Source: Treponemataceae bacterium
GTDB taxonomy: Bacteria; Spirochaetota; Spirochaetia; Treponematales; Rectinemataceae
Assembly: GCA_963667725.2 (NCBI GenBank)
Contig: CAXXHO010000005.1
Span: forward strand, 1,303,189-1,367,188
Reading direction: 5' to 3'
Length of the DNA stretch: 64,000 nucleotides
Shown here: piece by piece, positions 19,671-41,965 of the stretch
How the letters are laid out: each line of letters opens with the position of its first letter
Position numbering within the stretch: the first letter of the stretch is position 1
Translations under genes and position numbers: made by a program
The notes under the pieces: generated by a model
Database searches by the model: none
What the model saw: the letters and a program-made list of their open reading frames with translations, nothing else
What the model was told of the DNA's origin: nothing

Positions 19671-20736
19671 ACTGCATGACGTCGTCAAGGTTTTCGGGAA
19701 GAATACGGTTGTTCGAAACCTTTCGTTGAACGTGGAAAAAGGCGAATTCGTCTCATTCCTCGGGAGTTCGGGCTGCGGCAAGACGACGACGCTCCGGATG
19801 ATCGCGGGCTTCGAAACCCTGACCGAAGGGTCTATCATCCTCGACGGCGTGAACGTGGAACGCACGCCCCCGAACAGGCGGAACCTCGGCATGGTTTTTC
19901 AGAGCTACGCCCTCTTTCCCAACATGAACGTGCGCCACAATATAGGCTTCGCGCTGAAAATCGCCGGCCTTCCGCGGGAAAAGATGGAAAAACGCGTGGA
20001 CGAAATGCTCGATCTCATCAAGATGGGCGAATACGCGAGCCGCTACCCGCATCAGCTCTCGGGCGGCCAGCAGCAGCGCGTCGCCCTCGCCAGGGCTCTG
20101 GCAAGGGAACCTGCCGCTCTCCTCCTCGACGAGCCTCTCTCCGCCCTCGACGCCAAGATACGCGTGCGCCTCCGCGACGACATACGCGATATTCAGCGAA
20201 AACTGGGCATCACCACCGTCTATGTCACGCACGACCAGGAGGAAGCCCTCTCCATCTCCGATCGCGTCGCCGTCATGAAGGAAGGAAAAATCGAGCAGAT
20301 CGGAAGCCCTTTCGAAATCTACAACAAGCCAGCGACGCCCTACGTGGCGGCCTTCATCGGCACGCTCAACCGGCTGCCCGCCCTCGTCATCGATCCCTCG
20401 GCCGGAATCGTCGAGGTCGAAGGACAGAGGATCACGACCGCCTCGCCCATCCAGGCGGCAGGTGGAACCGCGCTCCAGCTGCGCTTGAGGCCCGAAGCCC
20501 TCTCCCTCGGGCCCGGCGACGAATCCTCCAACCGCCTGAAGGGAAACGTGGAAAACGTGAAATTCCTGGGTTCGATCGTGCGGCTTGTCGTACGCGTCGG
20601 CGCCCATCGGCTGTCGATAGACAGCTTCAACGAGCCTCGCCTTGTGCTGCCCGACTTGGGCGAGGAAATCGCCGTTTCCTTCGACAGGGAAGCCTGCGTC
20701 CTGGCCGAGCCGGAGGCGCAGCCGACGAGGTCCTGA
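19657..20736 (+). CDS. ABC transporter ATP-binding protein (PotA-like, TOBE domain)
   Basis: GSSGCGKTT, LSGGQQQRVALARAL, LLLDEPLSALD, VTHDQEEA. Confidence 0.95.
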   Translation: MAFLELHDVVKVFGKNTVVRNLSLNVEKGEFVSFLGSSGCGKTTTLRMIAGFETLTEGSIILDGVNVERTPPNRRNLGMVFQSYALFPNMNVRHNIGFALKIAGLPREKMEKRVDEMLDLIKMGEYASRYPHQLSGGQQQRVALARALAREPAALLLDEPLSALDAKIRVRLRDDIRDIQRKLGITTVYVTHDQEEALSISDRVAVMKEGKIEQIGSPFEIYNKPATPYVAAFIGTLNRLPALVIDPSAGIVEVEGQRITTASPIQAAGGTALQLRLRPEALSLGPGDESSNRLKGNVENVKFLGSIVRLVVRVGAHRLSIDSFNEPRLVLPDLGEEIAVSFDREACVLAEPEAQPTRS

Positions 20737-20802
20737 CAACCCCTGACAAATCCTGGCTCGGCGGGCTCCGAACCGTCGGCTGGCTCTTGCGGGAGGAAAA
20801 TC

Positions 20803-21075
20803 ATGAAAGCCATCCATGTCATTGTCGAGGGCGAAGTCCAGGGCGTAGGATTCCGCTACTCCTCGCTCAGGGAGGCGCGAGCTCTCGGCCTCACGGGCTG
20901 GGTGCGCAACGCCGAAGATGGATCGGTGGAGGTTTGGGCCGAAGGCGAAGAGAGTTCCCTCGACGAATTCTCCCTCTGGCTGGAACATGGGCCGGATTAC
21001 GCGCGCGTCGAGAAGGTGCGCGTCACCCGGGAAATGGCCCTGGAAATCTACTCTTCCTTCTCAACGATTTCATAA
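20803..21075 (+). CDS. acyP: Acylphosphatase
   Basis: VEGEVQGVGFR, GWVRNAEDGSVE, GPDYARV. Confidence 0.93.
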   Translation: MKAIHVIVEGEVQGVGFRYSSLREARALGLTGWVRNAEDGSVEVWAEGEESSLDEFSLWLEHGPDYARVEKVRVTREMALEIYSSFSTIS

Positions 21076-21118
21076 CATCTGCCTTCATAATATCTGCATA
21101 CACGGATTTCCTGTCTTA

Positions 21119-21161
21119 TGTGCGCTGTCGCACAGACTCTCTTCCCACCCCGGATTATTCT
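21119..21161 (+). promoter_or_regulatory. CRP/FNR-like box plus -10 (copy 1 of 5)
   Basis: TGTGCG-CTGT-CGCACA-GAC-N18-TATTCT. Confidence 0.7.
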
Positions 21162-21198
21162 TCATTCAGTCCTGTGAATAGCGGGGCAAGGGGGCGGT

Positions 21199-21417
21199 AT
21201 GAAGAATAATTATAAACAAGAGGAAGCGTCATCCATGCAGTACGGAAACAGGGGGAGCCAGACGGGAGATCCGGCGAGACTGTCTCCGTCCATGAGCAGC
21301 ATGGTGCTGCTCTCGCGAGGCGGCAATCGCGAAATGAAGGATTCTTGCATTACGCCAAAAGTTATAGAACTCGGCGATGTCGCCGACAGATCCTGCTTCA
21401 ACGGGCAAGGCCTGTAA
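21199..21417 (+). CDS. Hypothetical small ORF (72 aa, or 27 aa from ATG 21334)
   Basis: Open frame directly downstream of the promoter motif; no recognisable family. Confidence 0.3.
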   Translation: MKNNYKQEEASSMQYGNRGSQTGDPARLSPSMSSMVLLSRGGNREMKDSCITPKVIELGDVADRSCFNGQGL

Positions 21418-21475
21418 AAGACATGCAGGTTTTGCCTGCCGAAATTTCTCCATCATCCAAACCACGGAGGTTTCT

Positions 21476-22003
21476 ATGAAGCGTTTCATTCCCTTATTGA
21501 TGTTGCTGGCTCTTCTGCCGGTCGGCGTCTTCGCCCTTGATTTCTACGCCGGCGCCAACGCCTATTATGCCAGCCTGATCCAGCCAGCCGATGTTCAGGC
21601 TATCGACACCGCCAACCTCAACATGGCTGATTTCTCCTTCGGCGGAGAGGCGCGCATCGTCGGCCACCTTCTCTGGGCCAGCGCCATCGGAACTTACACT
21701 CCCGCCGACGCCAATATGCCGCATCGCCTCGATATAATGCTGGACGGCGGTGTCGGCCTCACGCTGGGCATCTTTCGCGCCGGTATCGGAATCGGACCTA
21801 ACTACGGCATCGAGATGGGCGACAACGCGGGGAACTACTTCAAGACCGGCGCCAATATGCGCCTCACCGGCGATGTCCTGCTGGGACCTTTCTCGGTTGG
21901 ATTGAGCTGGATCAGCAAAATCGAATTCACCCGCGCATCCTTTGTCGAGGCTTTCGAAAACCCCTATGGCCAGCTTGGCTTGGCGGTTCTCTACAAACTG
22001 TAG
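21476..22003 (+). CDS. Exported protein, probable small outer-membrane beta-barrel
   Basis: GGAGG RBS, signal peptide ending VFA, alternating hydrophobic Gly/aromatic strands, C-terminus QLGLAVLYKL. Confidence 0.65.
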   Translation: MKRFIPLLMLLALLPVGVFALDFYAGANAYYASLIQPADVQAIDTANLNMADFSFGGEARIVGHLLWASAIGTYTPADANMPHRLDIMLDGGVGLTLGIFRAGIGIGPNYGIEMGDNAGNYFKTGANMRLTGDVLLGPFSVGLSWISKIEFTRASFVEAFENPYGQLGLAVLYKL

Positions 22004-22044
22004 GCGGCCGCTCCCGCCGAAGAGTATTCGGCAAGAAGATAAAG

Positions 22045-22076
22045 AAAGGGCACCGGAGATTTTCCGGTGCCCTTTT
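22045..22076. terminator. Bidirectional intrinsic terminator
   Basis: AAAGGGCACCGGA-loop-TCCGGTGCCCTTTT between convergent genes. Confidence 0.85.
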
Positions 22077-22109
22077 CGTACCTAGGCATACTGTTTTTCT
22101 ATTGTTTTA

Positions 22110-23189
22110 TTACATCGCCGGTTCCGTCACCGCATCGGCATCCAGGGTCACCGCGGTCTGCGCGAGCAGCCTGCCGTTCACCATGGCGCCGGTGTTGACT
22201 TCCACCAGGGTTTTGCACAGGACGATTCCCTTGAAGTCCGAGGTTGTGCCGAGCGTGGTCTGTCCGGCAACCTGCCAGAAAATATTCTTGGGCTGCGCGC
22301 CGCCGCTCAGGGTGACGATAGCTCCGTTGCCCACCGTGAGGTCCTGCGCTATCTGGAAGATCCAGACATCGTTGGCGCCGCCGTTGAGCGTGACGCTGTT
22401 GTTTATTAGGACTCCCGTTCCCCATACATACAGGCCGGGAACGATAGTCTGTCCGCTGAGATCGCCAGCGTGGAGTTCCGTGGCGTCGGGCAAGGTGCGT
22501 CCCGCGGCGTCGGTGTAGGCGATTTCCATGTCGCCGATGGCCGTCGTCATGTTGGATGGCGTCGGCGGCGTATAATCGGCCGCGTAGATGCTGCCGGTGA
22601 CATAGGATGATGTCGAGAATACGTTCGAAGCGTCCATGATGAGGTCAAATCCGGTGATGTAGGTCGCGGCGGCGGGACTCACGCCAATGTCGCCGGTGAT
22701 CGCCGTCGTTCCGGTCGTCGATATTCCGGTTTTAGCCAGGATGACGAAGTTGCCCGCGGTGCCGAGATTCACGGGCGACGGACCGGAAGCCAGGTTAACG
22801 CCAGTCGTAAAGCTCCACGCGTACTCCGCTTCGAGGGCATTCCCCGCTACGTCCGTGACTGCCGTGGTGATCTTGGCCGTGTAGACGGTACTGGTGGAAA
22901 GATCCATCTCCGGTACCAGCGTGGCGACGAGATCGACATAGGTGACGGAAGCGGGAACGAGCGTCACGCCCTGGCTCAACGTAAAGGAAAGCGCCGTGAT
23001 CGTCGACGAGTCCATCGCTTCGCTGAAGGTCGCGGTGATGCTCCTGTTCCTGGCGACATCGGTCGCCCAGGTGGCCGGCGTCGTCGTATCGACGGTGGGC
23101 GGAATGACGTCGTCATTATTGATGGGACTCTTGCATCCAGCGATGACAAGAATCATTAGCAAAATAGGCAGAAGCCACATTTTTCTCAT
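22110..23189 (-). CDS. Ice-binding family (DUF3494) lipoprotein with one Ig-like domain
   Basis: LVIAGC lipobox; TATFSEAMD..DVAGNAL..WSFTT Ig-like domain; VNLGTAGNFVILAKTGIS, DAAGR, PGLY, WIFQI, KNIFWQV, GRLLAQTAVTLD; AAGGAGG RBS. Confidence 0.92.
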   Translation of the reverse strand: MRKMWLLPILLMILVIAGCKSPINNDDVIPPTVDTTTPATWATDVARNRSITATFSEAMDSSTITALSFTLSQGVTLVPASVTYVDLVATLVPEMDLSTSTVYTAKITTAVTDVAGNALEAEYAWSFTTGVNLASGPSPVNLGTAGNFVILAKTGISTTGTTAITGDIGVSPAAATYITGFDLIMDASNVFSTSSYVTGSIYAADYTPPTPSNMTTAIGDMEIAYTDAAGRTLPDATELHAGDLSGQTIVPGLYVWGTGVLINNSVTLNGGANDVWIFQIAQDLTVGNGAIVTLSGGAQPKNIFWQVAGQTTLGTTSDFKGIVLCKTLVEVNTGAMVNGRLLAQTAVTLDADAVTEPAM

Positions 23190-23290
23190 AAAAAGCACCT
23201 CCTTGATCAGTGCATAAAAAATTCTAAAAATAGGGTGCGAAGTCCGCCATAATCGTGACAGACACCGCACCCCGCATTCCGAAGCTCAAA

Positions 23291-24370
23291 TTACAGGGCT
23301 GGTTCCACGATGGTATTGGCATCCATAGTGACCGCGGTCTGCGTAAGCAGTCTGCCGTTCACGGTGGCTCCCGCCGCCAGGGTTATCGCGCCTGCCGACA
23401 TGATTACGCCTTCCATGTGGGAAGTCGCGGCGAGGGCTACGGCGCCGCCCACCTGCCAGAATATGTTCTTGGGAAGCGCTCCGCCGGTCAGGAGGACCTG
23501 AACCGTCGCGGCTTCCGTGAGCCCGCTGGCGATCTGGAATATCCAGACATCGTCGGCGCCGCCATTGAGGGTGACGTTGGTCGTAATCGACACTCCGGTT
23601 CCCCACTTGTAGAGACCGGGCTCGAGGTTCATGCCGCCGATTTCTCCGGCGCCCAGCTCCGAAGAATTGGGATCGAGTCTGCCGGCCGCGTCATCAAAGG
23701 CAGCCTGCATCGCAAGCACCGCCGTGGTCAGGTTCGTAGGTGTTGGCTCCACGTAATTCGCCGCATAGACATTCCCCGTAACCAAGGCCGAAGTGGCGAA
23801 GGTATTCGACACATCCATTATCAAGCCGAAACCAGTCATGGCCGCCGCATCGATGGGGCTCACAGCGATGTCACCGGTGATCATGGTCGCTCCGGTGGTC
23901 GTTATTCCCGTCTTGGCCAGGATCGCGTAATCCCCGGAGGTCCCGAGATCCACCGCAGCCGGACCGGCGGGAGGATTGGCCGTGGTCGTGAAGGTCCATA
24001 CCTTATCGGCCGCAAGCGCATTGCCGGCCGCATCGGTGACGCCTGTCGTGATCGTGGCCGTATAGACAGTGCTGGCCGCGAGATCATTAGTAGGGTTGAA
24101 GGTCGCTACCTTGTCCGCATAGCTGACCACGCCCTCGACCGCAGTGACGCCCTGCATTAGGGTGAAGTTCGCCGCTACGATGGTTGCCTCGTCCATGTCT
24201 TCGTCGAAGGTGGCCGTGACATTGCTGTTCCGTTCTACCGCGATCGCGGCGTCCACGGGACTGGTGGAACTGACAGTCGGAGCCGTGAGGTCCTCTTCAT
24301 CCACAGGATTACCGCAGCCGCTCAGCGAAAGGGCTACCATCAGCAGCCCCAAAAACAACATCTTCTTCAT
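23291..24370 (-). CDS. Ice-binding family (DUF3494) lipoprotein with one Ig-like domain
   Basis: LSLSGC lipobox; Ig-like domain; VDLGTSGDYAILAKTGI, DAAGR, PGLYKW, WIFQI, KNIFWQV, GRLLTQTAVT; AAGGAG RBS. Confidence 0.92.
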   Translation of the reverse strand: MKKMLFLGLLMVALSLSGCGNPVDEEDLTAPTVSSTSPVDAAIAVERNSNVTATFDEDMDEATIVAANFTLMQGVTAVEGVVSYADKVATFNPTNDLAASTVYTATITTGVTDAAGNALAADKVWTFTTTANPPAGPAAVDLGTSGDYAILAKTGITTTGATMITGDIAVSPIDAAAMTGFGLIMDVSNTFATSALVTGNVYAANYVEPTPTNLTTAVLAMQAAFDDAAGRLDPNSSELGAGEIGGMNLEPGLYKWGTGVSITTNVTLNGGADDVWIFQIASGLTEAATVQVLLTGGALPKNIFWQVGGAVALAATSHMEGVIMSAGAITLAAGATVNGRLLTQTAVTMDANTIVEPAL

Positions 24371-24433
24371 AATCGATATCTCCTTGTTTTTCATTCTCTT
24401 GTTCATGTTCAAAAATCCTCCTTCTTATTTGCA

Positions 24434-24476
24434 AGAATACGTACGGAATCCGTTTTGGTCTGTTCGGTAGCGCACA
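24434..24476 (-). promoter_or_regulatory. CRP/FNR-like box plus -10 (copy 2) driving the leftward IBP genes
   Basis: Minus strand TGTGCGCTACCGAACA-GAC-N18-TATTCT. Confidence 0.7.
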
Positions 24477-24493
24477 CAGTCCCGCGCTGTCTG

Positions 24494-24537
24494 TGTGTGC
24501 TGGCGCACAGACGAGGTTGATTCGCGTGAATGATATT
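24494..24537 (+). promoter_or_regulatory. CRP/FNR-like box (copy 3) upstream of the long IBP gene
   Basis: TGTGTGCTGGCGCACA-GAC then a weaker -10 (GATATT at N19). Confidence 0.62.
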
Positions 24538-24601
24538 TATGGGTAGATGGGGAGGATTGCTTCTATATGAATTGTATGTCCGAGAGAAAAAGGAGAAAAC
24601 A

Positions 24602-26962
24602 ATGAAGAAGATTTTAGTATCGATGCTTGTGCTGGTCGCGTTTTTCGCGGTCAGCTGCAAAAGTCCGGTGGCTGAGGATGTTGTCGCGCCCACGGTCGAC
24701 CTGACGAGCCCTGCCGATCTCGCTACCAATATAGCGATAACGGCTGATGTGACGGCGACCTTCAGCGAAGCGATGGATTCCGCGACCGTCGTCGCGGCGA
24801 ACTTTACCGTAAGCCAGGGGGCTACTCCCGTAGCCGGCACGGTGAGCTATGCCGATGATGTCGCCACCTTCAATCCGACAAGCGATCTCGCGGCGGGAAC
24901 CGAGTACACGGCGACGGTCTTGACAGGCGTCAAGGATGTGGCAGGAAACGCGCTGGCCGCCGCCAAAGTATGGACCTTTACGACAGCGGCGCTGGTAGAC
25001 ATCATCGCTCCCGCGGTGAGCGGAGTCAGCCCGGCCGATTTGGCCGTTGACGTGGCCGTTGTATCGAATGTCACCGCTACCTTCAGCGAAGCCATGGCAT
25101 CCGGAACGATCATCGCCGCGAACTTCACGTTGATGCAGGCGGCAACGCCTATTCCCGGGGTGGTCAGTTACGTGGGCAATATCGCTACCTTCAATCCGGA
25201 CAGCGATCTGGCCTTCAACACGATCTACACCGCGACCGTGAAAACGGACGTCACCGATGTGGCCGGCAATCATCTCGCGGCCAACAAGGTATGGACCTTC
25301 ACGACCGCGGCGTTCGTGGACAGCATCCCACCCACGGTGAGTCTAGTAAGTCCTGCCGACCTGGCTACCGATGTGGCCACTACATCGAATGTCACCGCCA
25401 CCTTCAGCGAAGAAATGACCTCCGGAACGATCGTCGCCGCGAACTTCACGCTGATGCAGGGGAGCACGCCTGTTGCGGGCGCGGTCAGCTATCTGGGCAA
25501 TGTCGCCACCTTCAATCCGGACAGCAATCTGGCCTACAACACGATGTACACCGCAACCGTGAAAACGGACGTCACCGATCTGACCGGCAATCATCTCGCG
25601 GCCAACAAGGTGTGGACTTTTACGACAGCCGCATTCGTGGACATCATCGCTCCCGCGGTGAGTTTAGTCAGCCCAGCGGACCTTGCCGTCAGTGTGGCCA
25701 TCACATCGAATGTCACCGCTACCTTCAGCGAAGCGATGACCTCCGGAACGATCATCGCCGCGAACTTCACGTTGATGCAGGCGGCTACGCCCATTCCCGG
25801 CGCGGTCAGCTATCTGGGCAACGTCGCCACGTTCAATCCTGACAGCGATCTGGCCTTCAACACGATCTACACCGCGACCGTGAAAACGGACGTCACCGAT
25901 GTAGCCGGCAATCATCTCGCGGTCAATAAGGTATGGACCTTCACGACTGCCGCGTTTGTGGACATCATTCCACCCACGGTGAGTTTAGTAAGTCCTGCCG
26001 ACCTGGCCGTCGACGTGGCGATCGCGTCGAATGTCACCGCCACCTTCAATGAAGCCATGGCTTCCGGAACGATCATCGCCGCGAACTTCACGCTGATGCA
26101 GGCAGGCATGCCTATTGCAGGCGCGGTCAGCTATCTGGGCAATGTCGCTACCTTCAATCCTGACAGCAATCTGGCTTACAGCACCATCTATACCGCAACC
26201 GTGAAAACGGACATCACCGATGTGGCCGGCAATCATCTCGCGGCCAACAAGGTGTGGACCTTCACGACCGTAGCCGCCCCAGTGGCGGGTCCCGCGGCCG
26301 TAGACCTTGGAACGGCGGGCAATTACGTAATCCTGGCGAAAACCGCCATCAGCACCGTTCCAACCTCAGCGGTTACGGGCGACATCGGGCTGAGCCCGGC
26401 CGCCGCGAGCTTCATCACGGGATTCTCGCTTGTAGCGGACGCCACGAATGTGTTCTCGACAGCGAGTCAGCTTACCGGAAGGGCTTACGCCGCCAATTAT
26501 ACCGATCCCACCCCCTCGAACCTGACCACCGCCGTGAGCGACATGGAAGCGGCGTATGCCGATGCCGCGGGGCGGCCGACGCCTGATTTCCTGAATCATG
26601 GAGCCGGAGAGATAGGCGGATTGATCCTTGTGCCTGGACTCTATAAATGGACCACAAACCTCTTGATCACCACCAACGTCACGCTGAACGGCGGTGCCAA
26701 CGATGTCTGGATCTTCCAGATATCGGGCGGCATCACTCAGGCTTCCGGCGCGAACGTCAATCTGACCGGCGGCGCTTTAGCCAAGAATATCTTCTGGCAG
26801 GCGGCTGATGATGTCACGCTCGGCACGACAGCCCATATGGAAGGCATCGTGCTTTGCGCCACGGCCATCCACCTCGGCACCGGCGCTTCCGCCAATGGCA
26901 GGCTGCTGGCTCAGACCGCCGTCACGATAGACGGCAGCGCTGTAGTCGAACCCATACTGTAG
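24602..26962 (+). CDS. Ice-binding family (DUF3494) lipoprotein with five tandem Ig-like domains (adhesin-like)
   Basis: FFAVSC lipobox; five 107-aa repeats; C-terminal VDLGTAGNYVILAKTAIS..PGLYKW..WIFQI..KNIFWQ..GRLLAQTAVT; AAGGAG RBS. Confidence 0.93.
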   Translation: MKKILVSMLVLVAFFAVSCKSPVAEDVVAPTVDLTSPADLATNIAITADVTATFSEAMDSATVVAANFTVSQGATPVAGTVSYADDVATFNPTSDLAAGTEYTATVLTGVKDVAGNALAAAKVWTFTTAALVDIIAPAVSGVSPADLAVDVAVVSNVTATFSEAMASGTIIAANFTLMQAATPIPGVVSYVGNIATFNPDSDLAFNTIYTATVKTDVTDVAGNHLAANKVWTFTTAAFVDSIPPTVSLVSPADLATDVATTSNVTATFSEEMTSGTIVAANFTLMQGSTPVAGAVSYLGNVATFNPDSNLAYNTMYTATVKTDVTDLTGNHLAANKVWTFTTAAFVDIIAPAVSLVSPADLAVSVAITSNVTATFSEAMTSGTIIAANFTLMQAATPIPGAVSYLGNVATFNPDSDLAFNTIYTATVKTDVTDVAGNHLAVNKVWTFTTAAFVDIIPPTVSLVSPADLAVDVAIASNVTATFNEAMASGTIIAANFTLMQAGMPIAGAVSYLGNVATFNPDSNLAYSTIYTATVKTDITDVAGNHLAANKVWTFTTVAAPVAGPAAVDLGTAGNYVILAKTAISTVPTSAVTGDIGLSPAAASFITGFSLVADATNVFSTASQLTGRAYAANYTDPTPSNLTTAVSDMEAAYADAAGRPTPDFLNHGAGEIGGLILVPGLYKWTTNLLITTNVTLNGGANDVWIFQISGGITQASGANVNLTGGALAKNIFWQAADDVTLGTTAHMEGIVLCATAIHLGTGASANGRLLAQTAVTIDGSAVVEPIL
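24674..26278 (+). repeat. Five tandem 321-bp repeats encoding Ig-like domains
   Basis: Units start at about 24674, 24995, 25316, 25637 and 25958; units 2-5 are highly similar at DNA level. Confidence 0.92.
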
Positions 26963-27006
26963 ACGAATCGATAGATTCGTCCGCGATGTGAAACTAATGT
27001 AAAAAA

Positions 27007-27045
27007 GAAGGGGCTGCCCGGGAAGTTTTCCCAGGCAGCCCCTTC
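27007..27045. terminator. Hairpin terminator between convergent IBP and catalase genes
   Basis: GAAGGGGCTGCC..GGCAGCCCCTTC stem preceded by an A-tract (U-tract on minus strand). Confidence 0.8.
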
Positions 27046-27098
27046 AATTATTTCTATTGATCAACGTATCGCAATCGACCTAATGATCGGATTCTTGC

Positions 27099-28607
27099 CT
27101 ACCGGCTGGTTGCCTTGACACGTTCTTCCTGAGACATGGCCGCAAGCCTCTTCACTTCGGCGCAGTCCAGCTTAAGCCCTTGGGCGACGCGTTCCCCGTA
27201 CCCGACATCTACCTTGTAGAACAGGGCCGCCTGACGCAGCTGAATGCGCGTTTGCGCCTTGCCCAGGTGGGATACGATGTTGCCGATGAGATGGTCGCGG
27301 TCCATGTCGGACATGACATTTCGATACAGATCTCCCGCCTGGACAAAGTCCACGTCTCCGGTTTCGTAGGCATGCCGCGTCGCCTTCCCGGCAACGGTAA
27401 AGGGCGGCACTGAGAATGACGGATCGGGCGCGGGACCGCCGACGCTGTTGGGCCAGTAGTTGGGGTTTCCGCCGCCGTTCGCGCCCGATCGCATGGGGCC
27501 ATCGCGCTGATAGCCGCTATCCATGGAAGCTTTAGGCGCATTGACGGGCAGGAGATTGAAGTTCGGGCCCAGCCTGTGCCTCTGCGTATCGGGATAGCTG
27601 AACAGGCGTCCCTGCAGGAGCCTGTCAGGCGATGCCCCGATTCCCGGCACGAAATTGCCTGGCGCGAAGGCGATCTGCTCCACTTCGGCGAAATAATTGG
27701 AAGGGTTGCGGTTGAGCACCATGCGTCCAAGGGGAAGAAGCGGATAATCTCCATGAGGCCAGACTTTCGTTATATCGAAAGGATCGAATCGATAGGTTTC
27801 CGCTTCCGCCGGCGTCATGATCTGCACGAACACTTGCCACCCGGGGTACTCCCCGCGCTGTATGCTGTCGTAGAGATCCCTCGTCGCGTGGTCGGGATCG
27901 ATACCGGCCAGACGGGCGGCTTCGTCGCGCGTGAGATTCCTGATCCCCTGTTCCGTCACGAAATGCGTCTTGACCCAGCAGTAGCAGCCTTTTTCGTCGT
28001 ACCACATGAAGGTATGGCTACTGAAGCCGTGCATGTGACGGTAATCGAGAGGGATGCCGCGGTCGGAGAAAAGAATTGTCACTTGATGGATGGACTCCGG
28101 CGTAAGCGAGAGAAAATCCCAGAACATATCGGGGTCTTTCAGATTGGTCGCGGGATTGCGCTTTTGGGTATGGATGAAATCCGGGAATTTTATGGCGTCG
28201 CGAATGAAGAACACCGGCGTATTGTTGCCTACCAGATCGTAGTTGCCTTCTTCCGTATAGAATTTGACGGCGAAACCGCGGGGATCGCGGTCCGCGTCGG
28301 CTGAACCTTTTTCGCCGCCCACCTGTGAGAATCGCGCGAAAATTTCCGTGCGCTTTCCTAGACTGGAGAGAAATTTTGCGCGCGTATATTTCGTCATGTC
28401 GTGAGTAACCTCGAAGTATCCGCTCGCTCCCGCGCCTTTCGCGTGCACAACCCTTTCGGGCACGCGTTCCCTGTCGAAATGCGCCAGTTTCTCCATGAGA
28501 TGCGTGTCCTGGATGAGCGTGGGGCCATCGGCTCCCGCCGTCATCGAGTTCAGGTCATTTTCGACAGGTCTCCCCGTATTCGTCGTTAAAATATTTTTTT
28601 TCGTGAT
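27099..28607 (-). CDS. katA: Monofunctional heme catalase (small subunit); first ATG at 28544, conserved N-terminus extends to about 28607
   Basis: [46 protein letters not shown] heme-ligand motif. Confidence 0.95.
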
Positions 28608-28652
28608 TATTGTATCTCCTGCCCATCTGCCGCCATTTTCGACCGATGGGCT

Positions 28653-29099
28653 TTACTTGCCCGAAGTCAATGAGCGGTAGATCAGCTGCATCAGTTCCTC
28701 GAAAAGGTGGAAATATCCGGAATTGTCTTTCTTGTAGGCCGTTACCGTATCGTTGATGCCCGATCCCATTTTTTCCATAACGTCGCTGGCCAGGGTCAAG
28801 CTGCCTTTTGCCGTGCTGGCGACATGCTCGACTTCCTGAATGATCGCGGGAAATGAAACCTTCAATTGGGAGGTTGTTTCTTTGAGATCGCCGCTTATCT
28901 GTTCGAAATCCCCGATTATGGCGGGCACTCTTCTGAAGGAATGCTTGATGGAATCTTTATTGATTTCCACAAGCGGGCTGATGATTCCCACCATCTTTTT
29001 AATGTTCAGGAGTATGGGTACGAGGATGGCGCCAAGTAGAATTCCCATCATGCATACGAGGAAAATCATCAAATCAGGCAACGTGAATTGTATTGTCAT
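28653..29099 (-). CDS. Membrane-anchored helical protein, DUF948/YoxC-like
   Basis: N-terminal TM helix followed by coiled helical region; adjacent to a YtxH gene. Confidence 0.55.
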   Translation of the reverse strand: MTIQFTLPDLMIFLVCMMGILLGAILVPILLNIKKMVGIISPLVEINKDSIKHSFRRVPAIIGDFEQISGDLKETTSQLKVSFPAIIQEVEHVASTAKGSLTLASDVMEKMGSGINDTVTAYKKDNSGYFHLFEELMQLIYRSLTSGK

Positions 29100-29114
29100 G
29101 GTTTTAGCCTCGCT

Positions 29115-29444
29115 CTACGCTGAAGCCGTTCCGCTTCTCTTTTTCCTGGCCGCCGGTTTCGGTTGCAAGGTGCTTTTCAATTCCTGAGCCGCGTGGGCAG
29201 TTGTTTTCTTTACGATTTCCGCCTTGTGCTTTACTTTTTCCCTGATGGTCTCCAAGGCATCTTCCGCTTTCTTTTTCAGCTCGTCCCTGGTTTCTTTTCC
29301 TGATTTCGGCGCGTAGAGAATTCCTTTCAGCAGCCCAATCGTGGCGGCTATACCCATTCCCAGCGCGAAATTTATGGAGGCCTTTCTCCGGTCCTCATCC
29401 CTTTTCTTCCTGTTTACCATATCCAGCATAGTATTGAAAAACAT
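29115..29444 (-). CDS. YtxH domain general stress protein
   Basis: FALGMGIAATIG..GILYAPKSGKETRDELK motif; GGAGGA RBS. Confidence 0.85.
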   Translation of the reverse strand: MFFNTMLDMVNRKKRDEDRRKASINFALGMGIAATIGLLKGILYAPKSGKETRDELKKKAEDALETIREKVKHKAEIVKKTTAHAAQELKSTLQPKPAARKKRSGTASA

Positions 29445-29547
29445 ACAAATTCCTCCGCAGAAAATTCTGCTGATCTCGAGTCGTTCTGCCGGTCGTTTTG
29501 GACCGGTTAACCTCAACTCGGGCGAGATAAAATCGGCGACCGCGCGG

Positions 29548-29724
29548 TTACATATTCTTTTTGATTTCTGCCTTGGCGTCGCCGAGTCCTGCCTGAACGG
29601 CCCCTTTGATTTTTTTGGCCTTTCCTTTTTTCTCCATTTTTTTATCGCCGACGACTATGCCTATCGCCTGCTTGACCTTGCCTTTCACTTCGTCGATGCG
29701 TCCCTTGATCTGATCATTATTCAT
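29548..29724 (-). CDS. csbD: CsbD family general stress protein (58 aa, absent from ORF track)
   Basis: Manual translation MNNDQIKGRIDEVKGKVKQAIGIVVGDKKMEKKGKAKKIKGAVQAGLGDAKAEIKKNM; AGGAGA RBS. Confidence 0.88.
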   Translation of the reverse strand: MNNDQIKGRIDEVKGKVKQAIGIVVGDKKMEKKGKAKKIKGAVQAGLGDAKAEIKKNM

Positions 29725-29796
29725 TCTTGTCTCCTGTAATGAAGTCTTCTGGAAAGGGTCTCATTTATCAATGCTCCCATTCTTTTGCCTGATCTA

Positions 29797-29914
29797 AAGG
29801 TACTTTGATGACCTTGATGGGTCTGTGCGGCAGCACACATAGGGCAGTGCAAAGGAAGGCCGGACAGTCTATGTGTGCTGCCGCACAGACCGCTTCGGGC
29901 TTGGGACCTATGCT
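29797..29914. promoter_or_regulatory. Divergent pair of CRP/FNR-like promoters (copies 4 and 5)
   Basis: Perfect 23-bp inverted repeat 29820-29842 / 29869-29891 containing TGTGTGCTGCCGCACA-GAC; -10 TACCTT (minus) and TATGCT (plus), each at N18. Confidence 0.75.
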
Positions 29915-29936
29915 CTTACGTATAAGGAGAAGTATC

Positions 29937-30131
29937 GTGAATACACTGAACGCAAAAAGCGCTATGTATGGGCCGATAGGCGAGTTCGGGAGCAAGTTGG
30001 ATTTTTTCCGCGATGTTGACATTTTTTCCGAAGAGAGAAAAGTTGAAGAGCTTCTCGATAAAGTGGAGAAGCGAATCGGAAGGGCGAAAGAAAACGTTGT
30101 TGGATTCATCAATACAACGGTTATAAGGTGA
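29937..30131 (+). CDS. Hypothetical small protein (64 aa)
   Basis: AAGGAGA RBS before GTG 29937; stop overlaps the next start (GTGA). Confidence 0.5.
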   Translation: MNTLNAKSAMYGPIGEFGSKLDFFRDVDIFSEERKVEELLDKVEKRIGRAKENVVGFINTTVIR

Positions 30132-30583
30132 TCAATGTCATTGGGCTTAATAATCGCATAACTTTACATAAATACACGAAGGCCGCGAAAGCCATAAAGT
30201 CCGAACTTGCCGAAAAATTCCCCGGCATCTCCTTTTCGATAAAATCGAAATCGTTCGCGAACGGAGACAATGTGACGATAGATTGGACAGGCGGCCCGAC
30301 GAGCGATGCCGTCGAGTCGGTGGTGATTAAATACCGATACGGAACGTTCGACGCATCGAAAAATCTTTACCTCTACGACAGTCGCGACGATGCCATTCCC
30401 CAGGCCCAGTACGTGATGGTTTCCCACCATCACAGCGATTCTTCGCAAAAAAAGGCCAAGCAGGAAATCGCCGATGGCTTCAATGTGGACATGAATGACA
30501 GCCAGGCGGTTTTCGCCGCCTTCGGCAACTGGCCTCAGCCTTTGATCCGCGCGAAGCTCGAACATCGCAGTCCGTTCAATTAG
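30128..30583 (+). CDS. LPD29 (large polyvalent protein-associated domain 29)-like protein
   Basis: AKAIKSELAEKFPGISFSIKS..GDNVTIDWTGGPTSDAV..KYRYGTFD pattern. Confidence 0.7.
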   Translation: MINVIGLNNRITLHKYTKAAKAIKSELAEKFPGISFSIKSKSFANGDNVTIDWTGGPTSDAVESVVIKYRYGTFDASKNLYLYDSRDDAIPQAQYVMVSHHHSDSSQKKAKQEIADGFNVDMNDSQAVFAAFGNWPQPLIRAKLEHRSPFN

Positions 30584-30718
30584 GCCGAATGTAATAAATA
30601 GAATCCAGACTTTGTTTTTACCGCTCCTCTCAGTATTTTTAGGCATACTTCATATGCGCTGCATGGTGGCGTATATTCTATTTGAAGGATGAATCCAAAA
30701 CCTGAGAAGGAGTTTTTC

Positions 30719-31519
30719 ATGGAACTAGGACTCAAGAATAAAATACTCTTTGCTTCGGCTTCTACCGATGGCTTGGGGCTGGGCATAGCGGAAAACGCTC
30801 TCGCCGAAGGCGCTTTCGTGTTTTTAGGCGGCAGATCGCAGGAGAGGCTCGATGCGGCGTTGAAACGCCTGGTTCCTTTGGCGGCGGCATCGGGCGGGCG
30901 GTCCGCCGGCACTGTCCTGGACATGTCCTCGGCCGGTTCCATCGAAGCCTGGGTCGCGGCGGGAATGGCCGCGATGGGGGAGCCGGACGCGCTGCTGGTG
31001 AACGCCGGCGGACCGCCCCCCGGAGACTTCGAAACGCTGGCGGGCGATGAGCCCTGGCAGGCGGCCTTCAACCTCACCCTCATGTCTTCCGTGCGGCTCA
31101 TCCGCGCTGTCCTGCCCTCCCTCAAGGCGAAGGGCGGTTCGATTCTCACGATAACCTCGAGTTCGGTGAAGGAGCCTTGGCCTGGGCTGATTCTTTCAGG
31201 CGTCATGCGCTCGGGAGTCGCCAGCCTCGTTAAATCGCTGTCGATCGAGCTCGCGCCTTACGGCATCCGCGTCAACAACATAGCGCCGGGCAATATCATG
31301 ACGGGCCGCCTCGATAGGCTCATCGCCGCCGAGGCCAAGGGCGCCGGAATCTCCAGCGACGAGCGGCGGGCCCAGCGTCAGGCCAATATCCCCATGGGAC
31401 GCATCGGGGAAGTGGAGGAGTTCGGCAGGGCGGGGGCTTTCCTTCTGTCGCCGGCAGCATCCTACCTGAACGGCCAGACCCTCCTCGTGGACGGGGGCGC
31501 TTCCAAGTTCCTGTACTGA
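30719..31519 (+). CDS. SDR family oxidoreductase
   Basis: MELGLKNK..ASTDGLG, LVNAGGPPPG, GIRVNNIAPG, IPMGRIG, VDGG. Confidence 0.92.
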   Translation: MELGLKNKILFASASTDGLGLGIAENALAEGAFVFLGGRSQERLDAALKRLVPLAAASGGRSAGTVLDMSSAGSIEAWVAAGMAAMGEPDALLVNAGGPPPGDFETLAGDEPWQAAFNLTLMSSVRLIRAVLPSLKAKGGSILTITSSSVKEPWPGLILSGVMRSGVASLVKSLSIELAPYGIRVNNIAPGNIMTGRLDRLIAAEAKGAGISSDERRAQRQANIPMGRIGEVEEFGRAGAFLLSPAASYLNGQTLLVDGGASKFLY

Positions 31520-39890: not shown

Positions 39891-41342
39891 TTGAATAAAA
39901 AAGACTTTCCGCGTGTCCATTTTTACGACCAGGACTTTGTAGAAATATACGACCGCACATGGGCCTGGGTTGCCGACTGCTGGGCCTCGGGCGGAGCCGA
40001 AAGCGGCTTCGACAAGATCAAGTTTTTCCATTATCCTCAAAAACCCGTTCTCGACGTGATGGAACAGGTTTTTTCTTCTTTTTTCCTGGTCTACAGCAAT
40101 AGGATATTTTCCGCGTCCAACGGCCTCGACGCTCTCTATGGCCTACAGGAAGCCGACGGAGCCATCAGGGCAACCTACGATATGGAAACCGGCAAGCCGA
40201 TTCTCACCACCGACAACCCCGACGGCCTCATTTTACCTCTCTTCGCCTGGGCGGAGTACAACCTTTATCACAAGACGGCCAACAAGAAACGCGTCAAGGA
40301 CGTGATGCCCGCCCTCAGGAAGCACTACAAATGGCTCGAGAGCAATTTCAAGGGCGCGAACGGTCTCTACGCGGCGCCGATCGCCGCCAGCGGCTTGAGC
40401 AACTCGCCCCGCGAGGGAGCCCGCTACCTGGTCGATTTCAACGCCGTCATGGCGATGAACGCGCTCTATATCTCGGCCCTCGGCGACATCCTCAACGACA
40501 AGGATATTTCCTTCCAGTTCAAGCGCGACTATTTTTCGCTCAAGACGAGAGTGAACGGCAAGATGTGGAACGCCGAGGATGGATTCTACTACGACCTCGA
40601 CGAGCAGGAAAAACACGTCAAGGTGAAGACGATAGGTTCCTACTGGCTGCTTCTGGCCGAAATACCCAACGAGGACAGGGCGGAGAAGCTCGTGGCCAAA
40701 CTTAAGGACCCCGCCTGCTTCGGTACGGAGAATCCTTTCCCGACCTTGTCGGCTGACGATCCCCATTACGACAAAAAGGGCAACGGCTATCGCGGTTCTG
40801 TCGTGACCGCCTTCACCTTCATGGTGATCAAGGGCCTGGAAAAATACAACTTCTACGAGTTCGCCCGCGACTGCGCCATCAGGCACCTCTATTTCATACT
40901 GGATTCGATGCACGCGGGGACGGAGCACGCCGAGGGGAACCATCAGAAAGAGCACAAACCCATCGTCTGGGGAGCATATCAGCCCCAATCCGAGGGCAAG
41001 GCCGCATGGGACGGACATCCCGAATGGCCCTATCCGCACTATCTGCCCTTCAACGGCCTCGCCAGCGTCACCCTGATGATCGAAAACATCGTGGGACTCT
41101 ATGTTTCCCTGCCGAGGAAGACGGTCGACTGGATCGTCCCCAACCTCGAGATCATGGGCATCGAGAACCTCTCCCTCAAGCGGAACATGGTCACCATTCT
41201 TTCGAGCAAATCCGGGCGCGGCTGGGAAATCCATATGGAGAGCGAAAAACTCTATTACTTCACCATCAACGTGCTCAACAAGAAAAAGAAAACCCTGCCC
41301 ATACCCTCGGGCAAGTGTTCCATGCTCATCGACAAAATCTAG
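39891..41342 (+). CDS. Trehalase/GH63 (MGH1-like) glycoside hydrolase family protein
   Basis: PLFAWAEY, MWNAEDGFYYD, FPTLSADDPHY..GYRGSV..MVIKGLEKY. Confidence 0.75.
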   Translation: MNKKDFPRVHFYDQDFVEIYDRTWAWVADCWASGGAESGFDKIKFFHYPQKPVLDVMEQVFSSFFLVYSNRIFSASNGLDALYGLQEADGAIRATYDMETGKPILTTDNPDGLILPLFAWAEYNLYHKTANKKRVKDVMPALRKHYKWLESNFKGANGLYAAPIAASGLSNSPREGARYLVDFNAVMAMNALYISALGDILNDKDISFQFKRDYFSLKTRVNGKMWNAEDGFYYDLDEQEKHVKVKTIGSYWLLLAEIPNEDRAEKLVAKLKDPACFGTENPFPTLSADDPHYDKKGNGYRGSVVTAFTFMVIKGLEKYNFYEFARDCAIRHLYFILDSMHAGTEHAEGNHQKEHKPIVWGAYQPQSEGKAAWDGHPEWPYPHYLPFNGLASVTLMIENIVGLYVSLPRKTVDWIVPNLEIMGIENLSLKRNMVTILSSKSGRGWEIHMESEKLYYFTINVLNKKKKTLPIPSGKCSMLIDKI

Positions 41343-41965
41343 AGGCTCGCCACCGACACGAAATGGGCGATCGCCGCCAGAAGCACGAAAATATGCCAGA
41401 TCTCATGGAAGCCGAATTTGCCGGGGAAGAAATTGCCCTTTTTCGTCGCGTAGATAAGGGCTCCCAGCGAATAGAGCAGCCCCCCCGCCATCAGCCAAGC
41501 GAGGGTCCAGGGCGTCAGCTTCGCCAGGAATTCCCTCGCGGCGAATACGCTGAGCCAGCCCATCCCGACATAGATGCCCGCCGTCACTCCCCTCGGGAGT
41601 CCGATGATGAATATCGTGAAGACGACGCCCGCCACGGCCAGGGCCCATATGACGGCCAGAAGGCCCCAGCGCCAGAAGCCGGAAAAGGCTATGACGCAGA
41701 AGGGGGTGTAGGTGCCGGCGATGAGGGTGTAGATCGCGGCGTGATCGAATTTCCTCAGCCGGACGAGGGTTTTCGGGGGGGCTTCCGAGGCGTGATAGAT
41801 GCCGCTCGCCGTGAACAAGGTGAGGAGGCAGAGGCTGTAGACCAGAAGGGAGAGGGTGCCGATGAGGCCGCCGGCGCCGCGGAGGAGAAGCCAGCCCGCA
41901 GCGGGCAAGGCGAGCGCGGCGCCGGCCAGGTGAGATAGGCTATTGAAGGGTTCCCTGATCCGCAT
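41339..41965 (-). CDS. Hemolysin III / PAQR family membrane protein
   Basis: EPFNSLSH, ASGIYH, FDHAAIYTLIAGTYTP, HEIWHIFVL. Confidence 0.92.
   Translation of the reverse strand: MRIREPFNSLSHLAGAALALPAAGWLLLRGAGGLIGTLSLLVYSLCLLTLFTASGIYHASEAPPKTLVRLRKFDHAAIYTLIAGTYTPFCVIAFSGFWRWGLLAVIWALAVAGVVFTIFIIGLPRGVTAGIYVGMGWLSVFAAREFLAKLTPWTLAWLMAGGLLYSLGALIYATKKGNFFPGKFGFHEIWHIFVLLAAIAHFVSVASL

Follow-up and report, generated by a model that had tools for sequence, protein, structure and literature searches.

Five palindromic boxes in a spirochaete DUF3494-csbD-catalase block as candidate sites of a Crp/Fnr-subfamily activator

The window analysed here is a 64,000-nucleotide stretch of a Treponemataceae bacterium genome (assembly GCA_963667725.2, contig CAXXHO010000005.1, positions 1,303,189 to 1,367,188, forward strand). 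It contains a block of five putative transcription units, encoding DUF3494, CsbD-like, YtxH-like and catalase proteins among others, each preceded by a 16-bp palindrome (hereafter, box). An initial annotation, made from the sequence alone, had placed these 16-mers, each followed by GAC, at +21119, -24476, +24494, -29839 and +29872 and had seen no other proper copy in the window. We verified all five positions; the boxes scored 22.8–23.4 bits with a matrix built from them, and the next best match in the window scored 11.0 bits. Box 1 (21119–21134, + strand) is of the TGTGCG-N4-CGCACA type, then GAC. Box 2 (24461–24476, -) and box 3 (24494–24509, +), with centres 33 bp apart, and box 4 (29824–29839, -) and box 5 (29872–29887, +), with centres 48 bp apart, form back-to-back pairs, each serving divergent units. 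Four of the boxes are followed after 18 nt by TAnnnT, as had been described, which gives predicted -10 elements for unit 1 (TATTCT, 21156–21161, +), unit 2 (TATTCT, 24434–24439, -), unit 4 (TACCTT, 29797–29802, -) and unit 5 (TATGCT, 29909–29914, +). Also as described, box 3 is followed by GATATT at 19 nt (24532–24537, +), a weak candidate -10 for unit 3 that lies one base further out and reads CATATT at the same place in a relative. From this box/-10 geometry, transcription start sites are predicted near 21168, 24427, 24543, 29790 and 29921 for units 1 to 5, respectively. Relative to the inferred -10 elements, the dyads lie about 41.5 bp upstream of the start and overlap a poor -35, box 3 being one base off. 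A scan for sigma70 consensus promoters missed all five, and no consensus -35/-10 pair was present in any of them. Contigs of four sequencing runs from one sample matched 20700–25129 and 26230–30700 with zero differing letters; this sample is possibly the source of the genome, and the match verifies the assembly only.

Each box had been claimed to point at one unit of the block. Pfam assignments agreed with this for most targets, but box 1 meets a 72-amino-acid (aa) open reading frame (ORF; 21199–21417, +) before the outer-membrane (OM) protein. This ORF, the first gene of unit 1, had zero Pfam or NCBIfam matches; it is 86% conserved in a relative (locus L020), and its C-terminal part also occurs in L016, where TP(K/R)VIELGD-x-x-DRSCFNGQ is kept with synonymous changes. 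This stretch may resemble a leader motif of ribosomally synthesized and post-translationally modified peptides. The second gene encodes a 175-aa protein (21476–22003, +) that has homologues and an apparent signal peptide and is likely a small OM beta-barrel, an assignment based on Atlas features (0.96–0.97 to OM beta-barrel clusters, with a recognition value under the tool's 2300 mark) and on a weak TDE1717-family match (E 0.021, below cut-off). Unit 2 consists of two genes for proteins with a lipoprotein signal, Big_5 and DUF3494 (the first at 23291–24412, -, with its start at 24370 or up to 24412; the second, 359 aa, at 22110–23189, -). Unit 3 encodes a 786-aa protein with a lipoprotein signal, five Big_5 repeats and DUF3494 (24602–26962, +). 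All three of these genes are intact. Their products matched PF11999 (DUF3494) at 235–261 bits (cut-off 28.7), and the domain matched a solved DUF3494 structure at E 4.5e-87; the term ice-binding, previously applied to them, stands as a Pfam domain label and not as a demonstrated activity.

Unit 4 begins with a CsbD-like protein (29548–29724, -), followed by a YtxH-like protein (29115–29444, -), a 148-aa protein with a hydrophobic N-terminus and no family match (28653–29099, -) and a monofunctional catalase (27099–28610, -). The 148-aa protein had been called DUF948-like, a label that is unsupported, as there was no DUF948 match even at E 0.5. At the catalase start (28607–28612, -) the window reads ATC where L020 has ATG; an in-frame ATA lies just before it, AGGAGA is intact, and the first in-frame ATG is at 28544. 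The gene may use a rare start codon or may have lost the N-terminal arm of its product. Unit 5 contains a 64-aa ORF without a family (29937–30131, +; GTG start after GGAG; 56% identical homologue in L020) and a gene for an LPD29-domain protein (30128–30583, +). G+C content dips to 48–51% over csbD-ytxH-LPD29 (28000–31000), compared with about 59% window-wide.

A genome-wide matrix scan had been proposed as a check of the motif. We trained a matrix on the five window sites only, leaving the -10 outside it, and applied it to the 4.2-Mb genome (G000) at a threshold of at least 18 bits. It found 18 sites, versus a mean of 1.5 (maximum 5) for 30 column-shuffled matrices. TAnnnT occurred 21 nt past the core in 14 of the 18 sites, as expected from the class II geometry that had been claimed for the block, and at the same offset in 10 of the 13 sites outside the window (background 0.8%). 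The excess over shuffled matrices and the fixed offset outside the window show that the five-site motif is not due to chance. A matrix built from non-spirochaete sites only (see below) recovered each of the window's five boxes, together with 16 distinct strong boxes in G000, which persist, with -10-like hexamers, in eight places. Outside the window, the sites lie in front of a second DUF3494 cluster, a gene for a small lipoprotein, an lmo0937-family gene, an operon that extends to a second csbD, an operon of RNB, alpha-beta hydrolase, Fe-Mn superoxide dismutase (SOD) and WrbA genes, a REC-PAS histidine kinase, a CHASE3-PAS kinase/receiver/HD-domain operon, and small secreted proteins without family matches. 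Four of the five intact DUF3494 genes in the genome lie behind boxes. Part of the second cluster (G000:C5:838926-840500, L007:8926-10500) is degenerate, with split DUF3494 genes, internal stops and an apparent remnant of the OM-protein C-terminus. Besides, a tRNA gene (Gly, Glu, Met or Ala) lies within 1.5 kb at 4 of 7 outlying box loci (L008, L009, L011 and L012), compared with 3% of random positions, which suggests that box loci may have been integrated piecewise at tRNAs. The whole genome contains one perfect TGTGA-N6-TCACA palindrome (G000:C3:2191588), which lies upstream of a gene and may belong to another regulator.

Further analysis of the genome with regard to possible readers of the box revealed four Crp/Fnr genes above the Pfam cut-off. 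Two of them, at C5:842312-843067 and C3:1242765-1243508, are paralogues with 81% identity whose starts lie no more than about 0.1 kb from boxes; the C5 gene lies within the second DUF3494 cluster. The other two (frames at C3:559828 and C3:1663234) have different helices and no box of at least 18 bits nearby, and were rejected. The C5 protein belongs to the Crp/Fnr superfamily (PF00027, 33.4 bits; PF13545, 59.8 bits; both above cut-off) and has an N-terminal cyclic-nucleotide-binding-like beta-barrel and a C-terminal Crp-type helix-turn-helix (HTH). Its structural model (pLDDT, a predicted local confidence score, of 89.8) matched GlxR with a Foldseek E of 5e-14 and gave template modelling (TM) scores of 0.72–0.73 to GlxR and Mycobacterium tuberculosis (Mtb) CRP. 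A Crp/Fnr paralogue with an altered recognition helix had been predicted, and the helix of this protein indeed reads RREGVTE, compared with SRETVNK in GlxR. The activator had also been expected outside the window; this holds for the present genome, but in a same-genus genome its gene lies at the left edge of this block. Residues C154, H158, C231 and C233 were invariant in 42 aligned sequences, including paralogues at 32–44% identity, and likely form a metal or thiol-redox sensing site. The C3 copy (L009:6765-7508), flanked by the operon with the second csbD and by a tRNA-Glu gene, carries Lys where the C5 helix has its Glu, with the same letters in the contigs; this state was absent among the helices of the homologues compared. 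The equivalent Glu-to-Lys mutant of CRP loses base discrimination. Because of this replacement in the C3 copy, we infer that the C5 copy is the working one. Both genes have their own upstream TTGACA, so their expression may be constitutive, with control acting on the protein. No description of this regulator or box was found by title or abstract start in the literature covered, most subscription papers and RegPrecise being outside that coverage. The figures or supplements of one Crp/Fnr paper (PMC3590769), in which the terms TGTG, Burkholderia and Spirochaet had no match, may place the subfamily in one of its groups.

Comparison with relatives links a crp gene of this subfamily to the block itself. 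In the same-genus genome, G099:C58 carries crp at 40839-41573 and a box at 41713, and the gene order is that of the window: crp, box, two DUF3494 genes, box pair, long DUF3494 gene, csbD, box pair and DUF3494 gene. L020, which aligns with the window at 81–90%, also has crp between the acylphosphatase gene and box 1. In the window this place holds about 45 bp (21076–21118, no strand), and the crp of about 735 bp, together with its promoter, that a colinear relative has here is absent. The orthologue of the block's crp in this genome is the C3 copy (tree support 99/84, in a midpoint-rooted tree of 40 rows, comprising both G000 copies and 38 rows selected out of 116 homologous frames). A colinear relative also has an extra DUF3494 gene between the box 5 promoter and the small ORF. 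Since this gene, present behind box 5 in L020, is missing from the window, unit 5 resembles an operon that has been shortened. One further homologue (L021), 80% identical to the C5 protein, fell inside the spirochaete clade even though its 3.5-kb contig is titled Candidatus Shapirobacteria, which reflects either mis-binning or transfer.

Homologues with 57–72% identity occur in methylotrophs, nitrifiers, Burkholderiales, Halomonas, Acidobacteria and on plasmids including pKLC102, and those with annotation are named only "Crp/Fnr family transcriptional regulator". We searched 80 homologue loci from Spirochaetota, Beta- and Gammaproteobacteria (Pseudomonadota) and Acidobacteriota with a spirochaete-trained core matrix at 15 bits. 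This gave 150 boxes, versus 2.3 in shuffles, distributed over 70 of the 80 loci (62 of 70 in L024–L093), with the consensus TGT(G/T/A)(C/T)G-N4-CG(C/A/T)ACA. Among 149 sites with full flanks, YAnnnT was found at gap 21 on the GA side in 87 and on the other side in 10, and other gaps gave 1–14. In the pKLC102 region of Pseudomonas aeruginosa (L144; homologue at 66.5%), weaker boxes lie near a glycoside hydrolase family 94 gene, the crp operon and a methyltransferase operon. Four Burkholderiaceae loci (L065, L071, L083 and L145) have the variant box GTACG-N4-CGTAC, followed by GAC and then CAnnnT, and in L065 and L145 one paralogue has an apparent N-terminal HTH-like extension. We also surveyed 201 genomes of the order, 19 with this crp (G000 included) and 182 without it. 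At least three pattern matches were found in 11 of the 19 crp genomes versus 5 of the 182 others, and at least four in 8 versus 0; CsbD was present in 7 versus 0 and DUF3494 in 13 versus 7.

With regard to targets near the homologues, 60 of the first ORFs downstream of boxes were hand-picked from 142 after repeats and apparent spurious frames were dropped, and 39 of the 60 had a Pfam family. They included CsbD (three times), BON (three), OsmC, DUF5670, DUF3096, DUF3185, entericidin, Usp, a ferritin-like protein, SOD, MipA (two), kinases or receivers (five), DUF3494 (three) and Crp paralogues. Such gene content (CsbD, BON, OsmC, entericidin and others) is typical of general stress regulons. Examination of other DUF3494 and CsbD loci, likewise proposed as a check, had a mixed outcome in crp genomes: CsbD was boxed in 8 of 10 loci, but DUF3494 in only 8 of 23 (6 of 8 and 7 of 21, respectively, without G000). 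In genomes without crp, 0 of 7 DUF3494 loci were boxed. DUF3494 genes lay near the regulator in 5 of the 10 loci L014–L023 versus 4 of the 70 other loci. Since it is chiefly in spirochaetes that DUF3494 genes are frequent next to the regulator, these ice-binding-like genes seem to have joined the regulon mostly in spirochaetes, and cold is not indicated as the signal.

The box also appears to change with the recognition helix. In the 76 loci whose second specificity position is Glu or Asp, the fourth half-site base (base 4) was G in 163, T in 81, A in 56 and C in 10 of 310 half-sites. At the five loci with Ser, Pro or Ala there, it was A in 16, C in 3 and G in 1 of 20, i.e., the box changes from GTG to GTA in the loci that have another residue for the helix Glu. 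Base 4 is the base read by Glu181 of CRP, and NtcA, whose helix carries Val at this position, reads A. This covariation is suggestive, rather than statistical proof, because four of the five non-Glu loci are from Burkholderiaceae.

Co-occurrence, synteny and covariation tie this crp subfamily to the box, and the likely reader of the boxes is the Crp/Fnr subfamily with the helix RRExxxE. We consider it probable (about 0.78) that the five palindromes are sites of a dimer of this subfamily that activates the five units and about a dozen other promoters as a stress/envelope regulon. A dimer of the RRExxxE protein (G000:C5:842312-843067) would bind the dyads at about -41.5 and activate sigma70-type promoters with a poor -35, i.e., by class II activation, which is established for CRP and FNR. 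The -35 position reads CAGAC(N), a putative degenerate TTGAC(A), if the start is placed so that the -10 falls at -12 to -7. In class II promoters the -35 overlaps the activator site, and such activation would therefore account both for a GAC flank on one side only and for the lack of consensus promoters. The five units and the other promoters would be induced jointly, and the box-controlled PAS/CHASE3 kinases could feed a signal in. We infer direct binding, activation and co-induction from these sequence patterns.

Several observations weigh against this explanation. Box 3 is missing a proper -10, and an intact Big_5-type DUF3494 gene (C5:1019840-1020910), downstream of a small ORF of unknown family, has no box. 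Among the 23 DUF3494 loci from crp genomes, the 8 counted as boxed are the only ones with a box within 1.5 kb upstream of the domain. Ten of the 80 homologue loci had no match at 15 bits; relaxed scans gave weaker or variant boxes in most of them, and two short contigs had no box even in those scans. In the order-wide survey, 2 of the 19 crp genomes had no pattern match and 40 of the 182 genomes without crp had one to three; moreover, the genomes are kin, so the counts and Fisher values overstate independence. The covariation rests on approximately two independent events, base 1 changes together with base 4, and even in Glu loci base 4 was other than G in 147 of 310 half-sites. Finally, compared with L020, the window has neither the crp nor the DUF3494 gene behind box 5.

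These last losses point to the alternative that survives best, namely that the boxes are sites of the Crp subfamily in a block that is decaying and no longer effectively induced. The disappearance of crp from the left edge of the block and of the DUF3494 gene behind box 5 would fit such decay, and so would the ATC start of the catalase where the relative has ATG, the Glu-to-Lys change in the helix of the C3 orthologue of the block's crp, and the broken DUF3494 genes of the second cluster. However, all five boxes score near the maximum, the three window DUF3494 genes are intact, the 16 distinct strong boxes keep their -10-like hexamers in eight places of the genome, and an intact RREGVTE copy exists on C5. 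Because the boxes and the C5 regulator are intact, we rate this alternative as improbable. Less probable again is that the motif serves an alternative sigma factor as an extended -35, or is a site of some other regulator such as a response regulator, with crp as a fellow traveller. The genome does have three group-2-like sigma factors besides RpoD, as well as FliA/WhiG and five extracytoplasmic function (ECF)-like factors, kinase and receiver genes lie behind several boxes, and the one-sided GAC flank is strongly conserved. Yet the core is a 16-bp dyad with the Crp-type TGT-N10-ACA spacing, the box follows this crp from phylum to phylum and varies along with its helix, and the GA(C) flank falls where a class II -35 would overlap the site. 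The three group-2-like factors are RpoD/RpoS-like paralogues of about 300 aa (C3:1431657, C3:1539253 and C5:870909, scanned over region 2), and an RpoS-like sigma may serve as the partner sigma of the Crp protein.

The same Crp protein might instead bind and repress by covering the -35 region. Some Crp-family proteins are repressors, and the box does overlap the -35 position. Repressor sites, however, are usually scattered over a promoter, whereas the offset here is fixed (gap 21 in 87 of 149 sites), and the lack of a consensus -35/-10 pair in the five promoters gives them an activator-dependent look; we regard repression as very unlikely. That the palindromes are repeat, recombination or RNA-structure elements without a role in transcription initiation has a negligible chance of being correct, for although outlying box loci lie near tRNA genes far above background, as integrated elements do, conservation in the flanks is limited to the -10 columns, every copy is intergenic and directed at an ORF with a ribosome-binding site, and box orientation correlates with the -10.

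Under activation by the Crp-subfamily dimer, the signal is the least certain part of the explanation. Because catalase, SOD, WrbA, CsbD and lmo0937 are among the targets, we slightly favour oxidative or envelope stress over cold. A broader proposal, which we put forward as tentative, is that the system is a mobile, cross-phylum general stress response in which a Crp/Fnr activator with a Cys3-His sensor replaces an alternative sigma factor, and that spirochaetes without SigB may have acquired it and wired DUF3494 surface lipoproteins, csbD-ytxH, catalase and SOD to it. If true, this would provide the first named regulator of DUF3494 genes that we have found, and DUF3494 proteins would have to be viewed as adhesins induced by stress and not as antifreeze proteins specific to cold. 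With a predicted box, a promoter geometry and a list of targets, the regulon can be tested directly in cultured strains. Confirmation would establish a sigma-independent route controlling CsbD/BON/lmo0937-type stress genes, help to define the conditions of DUF3494 gene expression, and add a natural example of covariation between a helix residue and a box base in the Crp family.

Among known systems, the class II site of CRP, TGTGA-N6-TCACA centred at -41.5 (Escherichia coli CRP, GlxR/Mtb CRP), is the obvious point of comparison. The system described here shares with CRP and GlxR the Crp fold, a 16-bp TGTG-N8-CACA dyad, 21 nt from core to -10 and an Arg-Glu pair opening the recognition helix. 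However, the regulator is only 15–20% identical to them. Positions 5–6 of the box read CG or TG where the CRP site has A, and the canonical palindrome occurs in the genome once. CRP proper has an RExxxR recognition helix (PMC3590769, where it is written RExxR), whereas that of our regulator, RREGVTE, ends in Glu (RExxxE) and not in Arg or Lys. The cyclic AMP cassette of CRP proper (GE...R[S/T]) is not retained either, the GE and RT columns of GlxR being G-hydrophobic and non-Arg in the profile, and the invariant C-x3-H and C-terminal CxC further distinguish the regulator from GlxR.

NtcA, a cyanobacterial Crp-family activator with the box GTA-N8-TAC, was the best single-sequence match among solved structures (E 9e-6), and non-Glu members of the subfamily use a GTA-type box. 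Nevertheless, the regulator scored 25 bits with TIGR03697 against a cut-off of 245 bits, its REGVTE differs from the RxxxxR-type NtcA helix RVTVTR, and its targets are not nitrogen genes. FNR and Anr are defined by four Fe-S cysteines, three of them N-terminal, and an ExxSR-type helix; the regulator has neither N-terminal cysteines nor the FNR helix motif, and its invariant cysteines are at 154, 231 and 233. It is a member of the Crp/Fnr superfamily that lies outside CRP, FNR and NtcA as these are defined. The lxa regulon of Burkholderia cenocepacia, according to the accessible part of its description (PMC3721108), is similar in that a Crp/Fnr-type box is common to a stress-survival gene cluster and outlying loci; its motif, TGA-N6-TCA, which is linked to Anr-like proteins, differs, and we rejected it as the same system.

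The DUF3494 domain of the window proteins is the PF11999 beta-solenoid of known ice-binding proteins (PDB 9li0, 4nu3 and 3wp9), but the window proteins are lipoproteins with one or five Big_5 stalk domains. A DUF3494 paralogue at C5:841135 scored 244 with NCBIfam IBP_CFB (cut-off 400). No paper on the regulation of these DUF3494 proteins was found in the literature searched. With regard to gene content, the closest parallels are the SigB, RpoS and EcfG regulons, which comprise csbD, ytxH, lmo0937, catalase, osmY/BON, osmC, entericidin and wrbA; overlapping target families occur in this genome and near the homologues. In this 97% complete genome none of five TIGR02980 matches for SigB/F/G-family sigma factors was above the cut-off (best 134 versus 234 bits). 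In contrast to these regulons, control here is apparently exerted via a DNA-binding activator at a dyad box and not by a dedicated sigma factor. The proposed activation mechanism is familiar from textbooks, and what is new is its instance in a spirochaete, the DUF3494 targets, the synteny and the covariation of helix and box.

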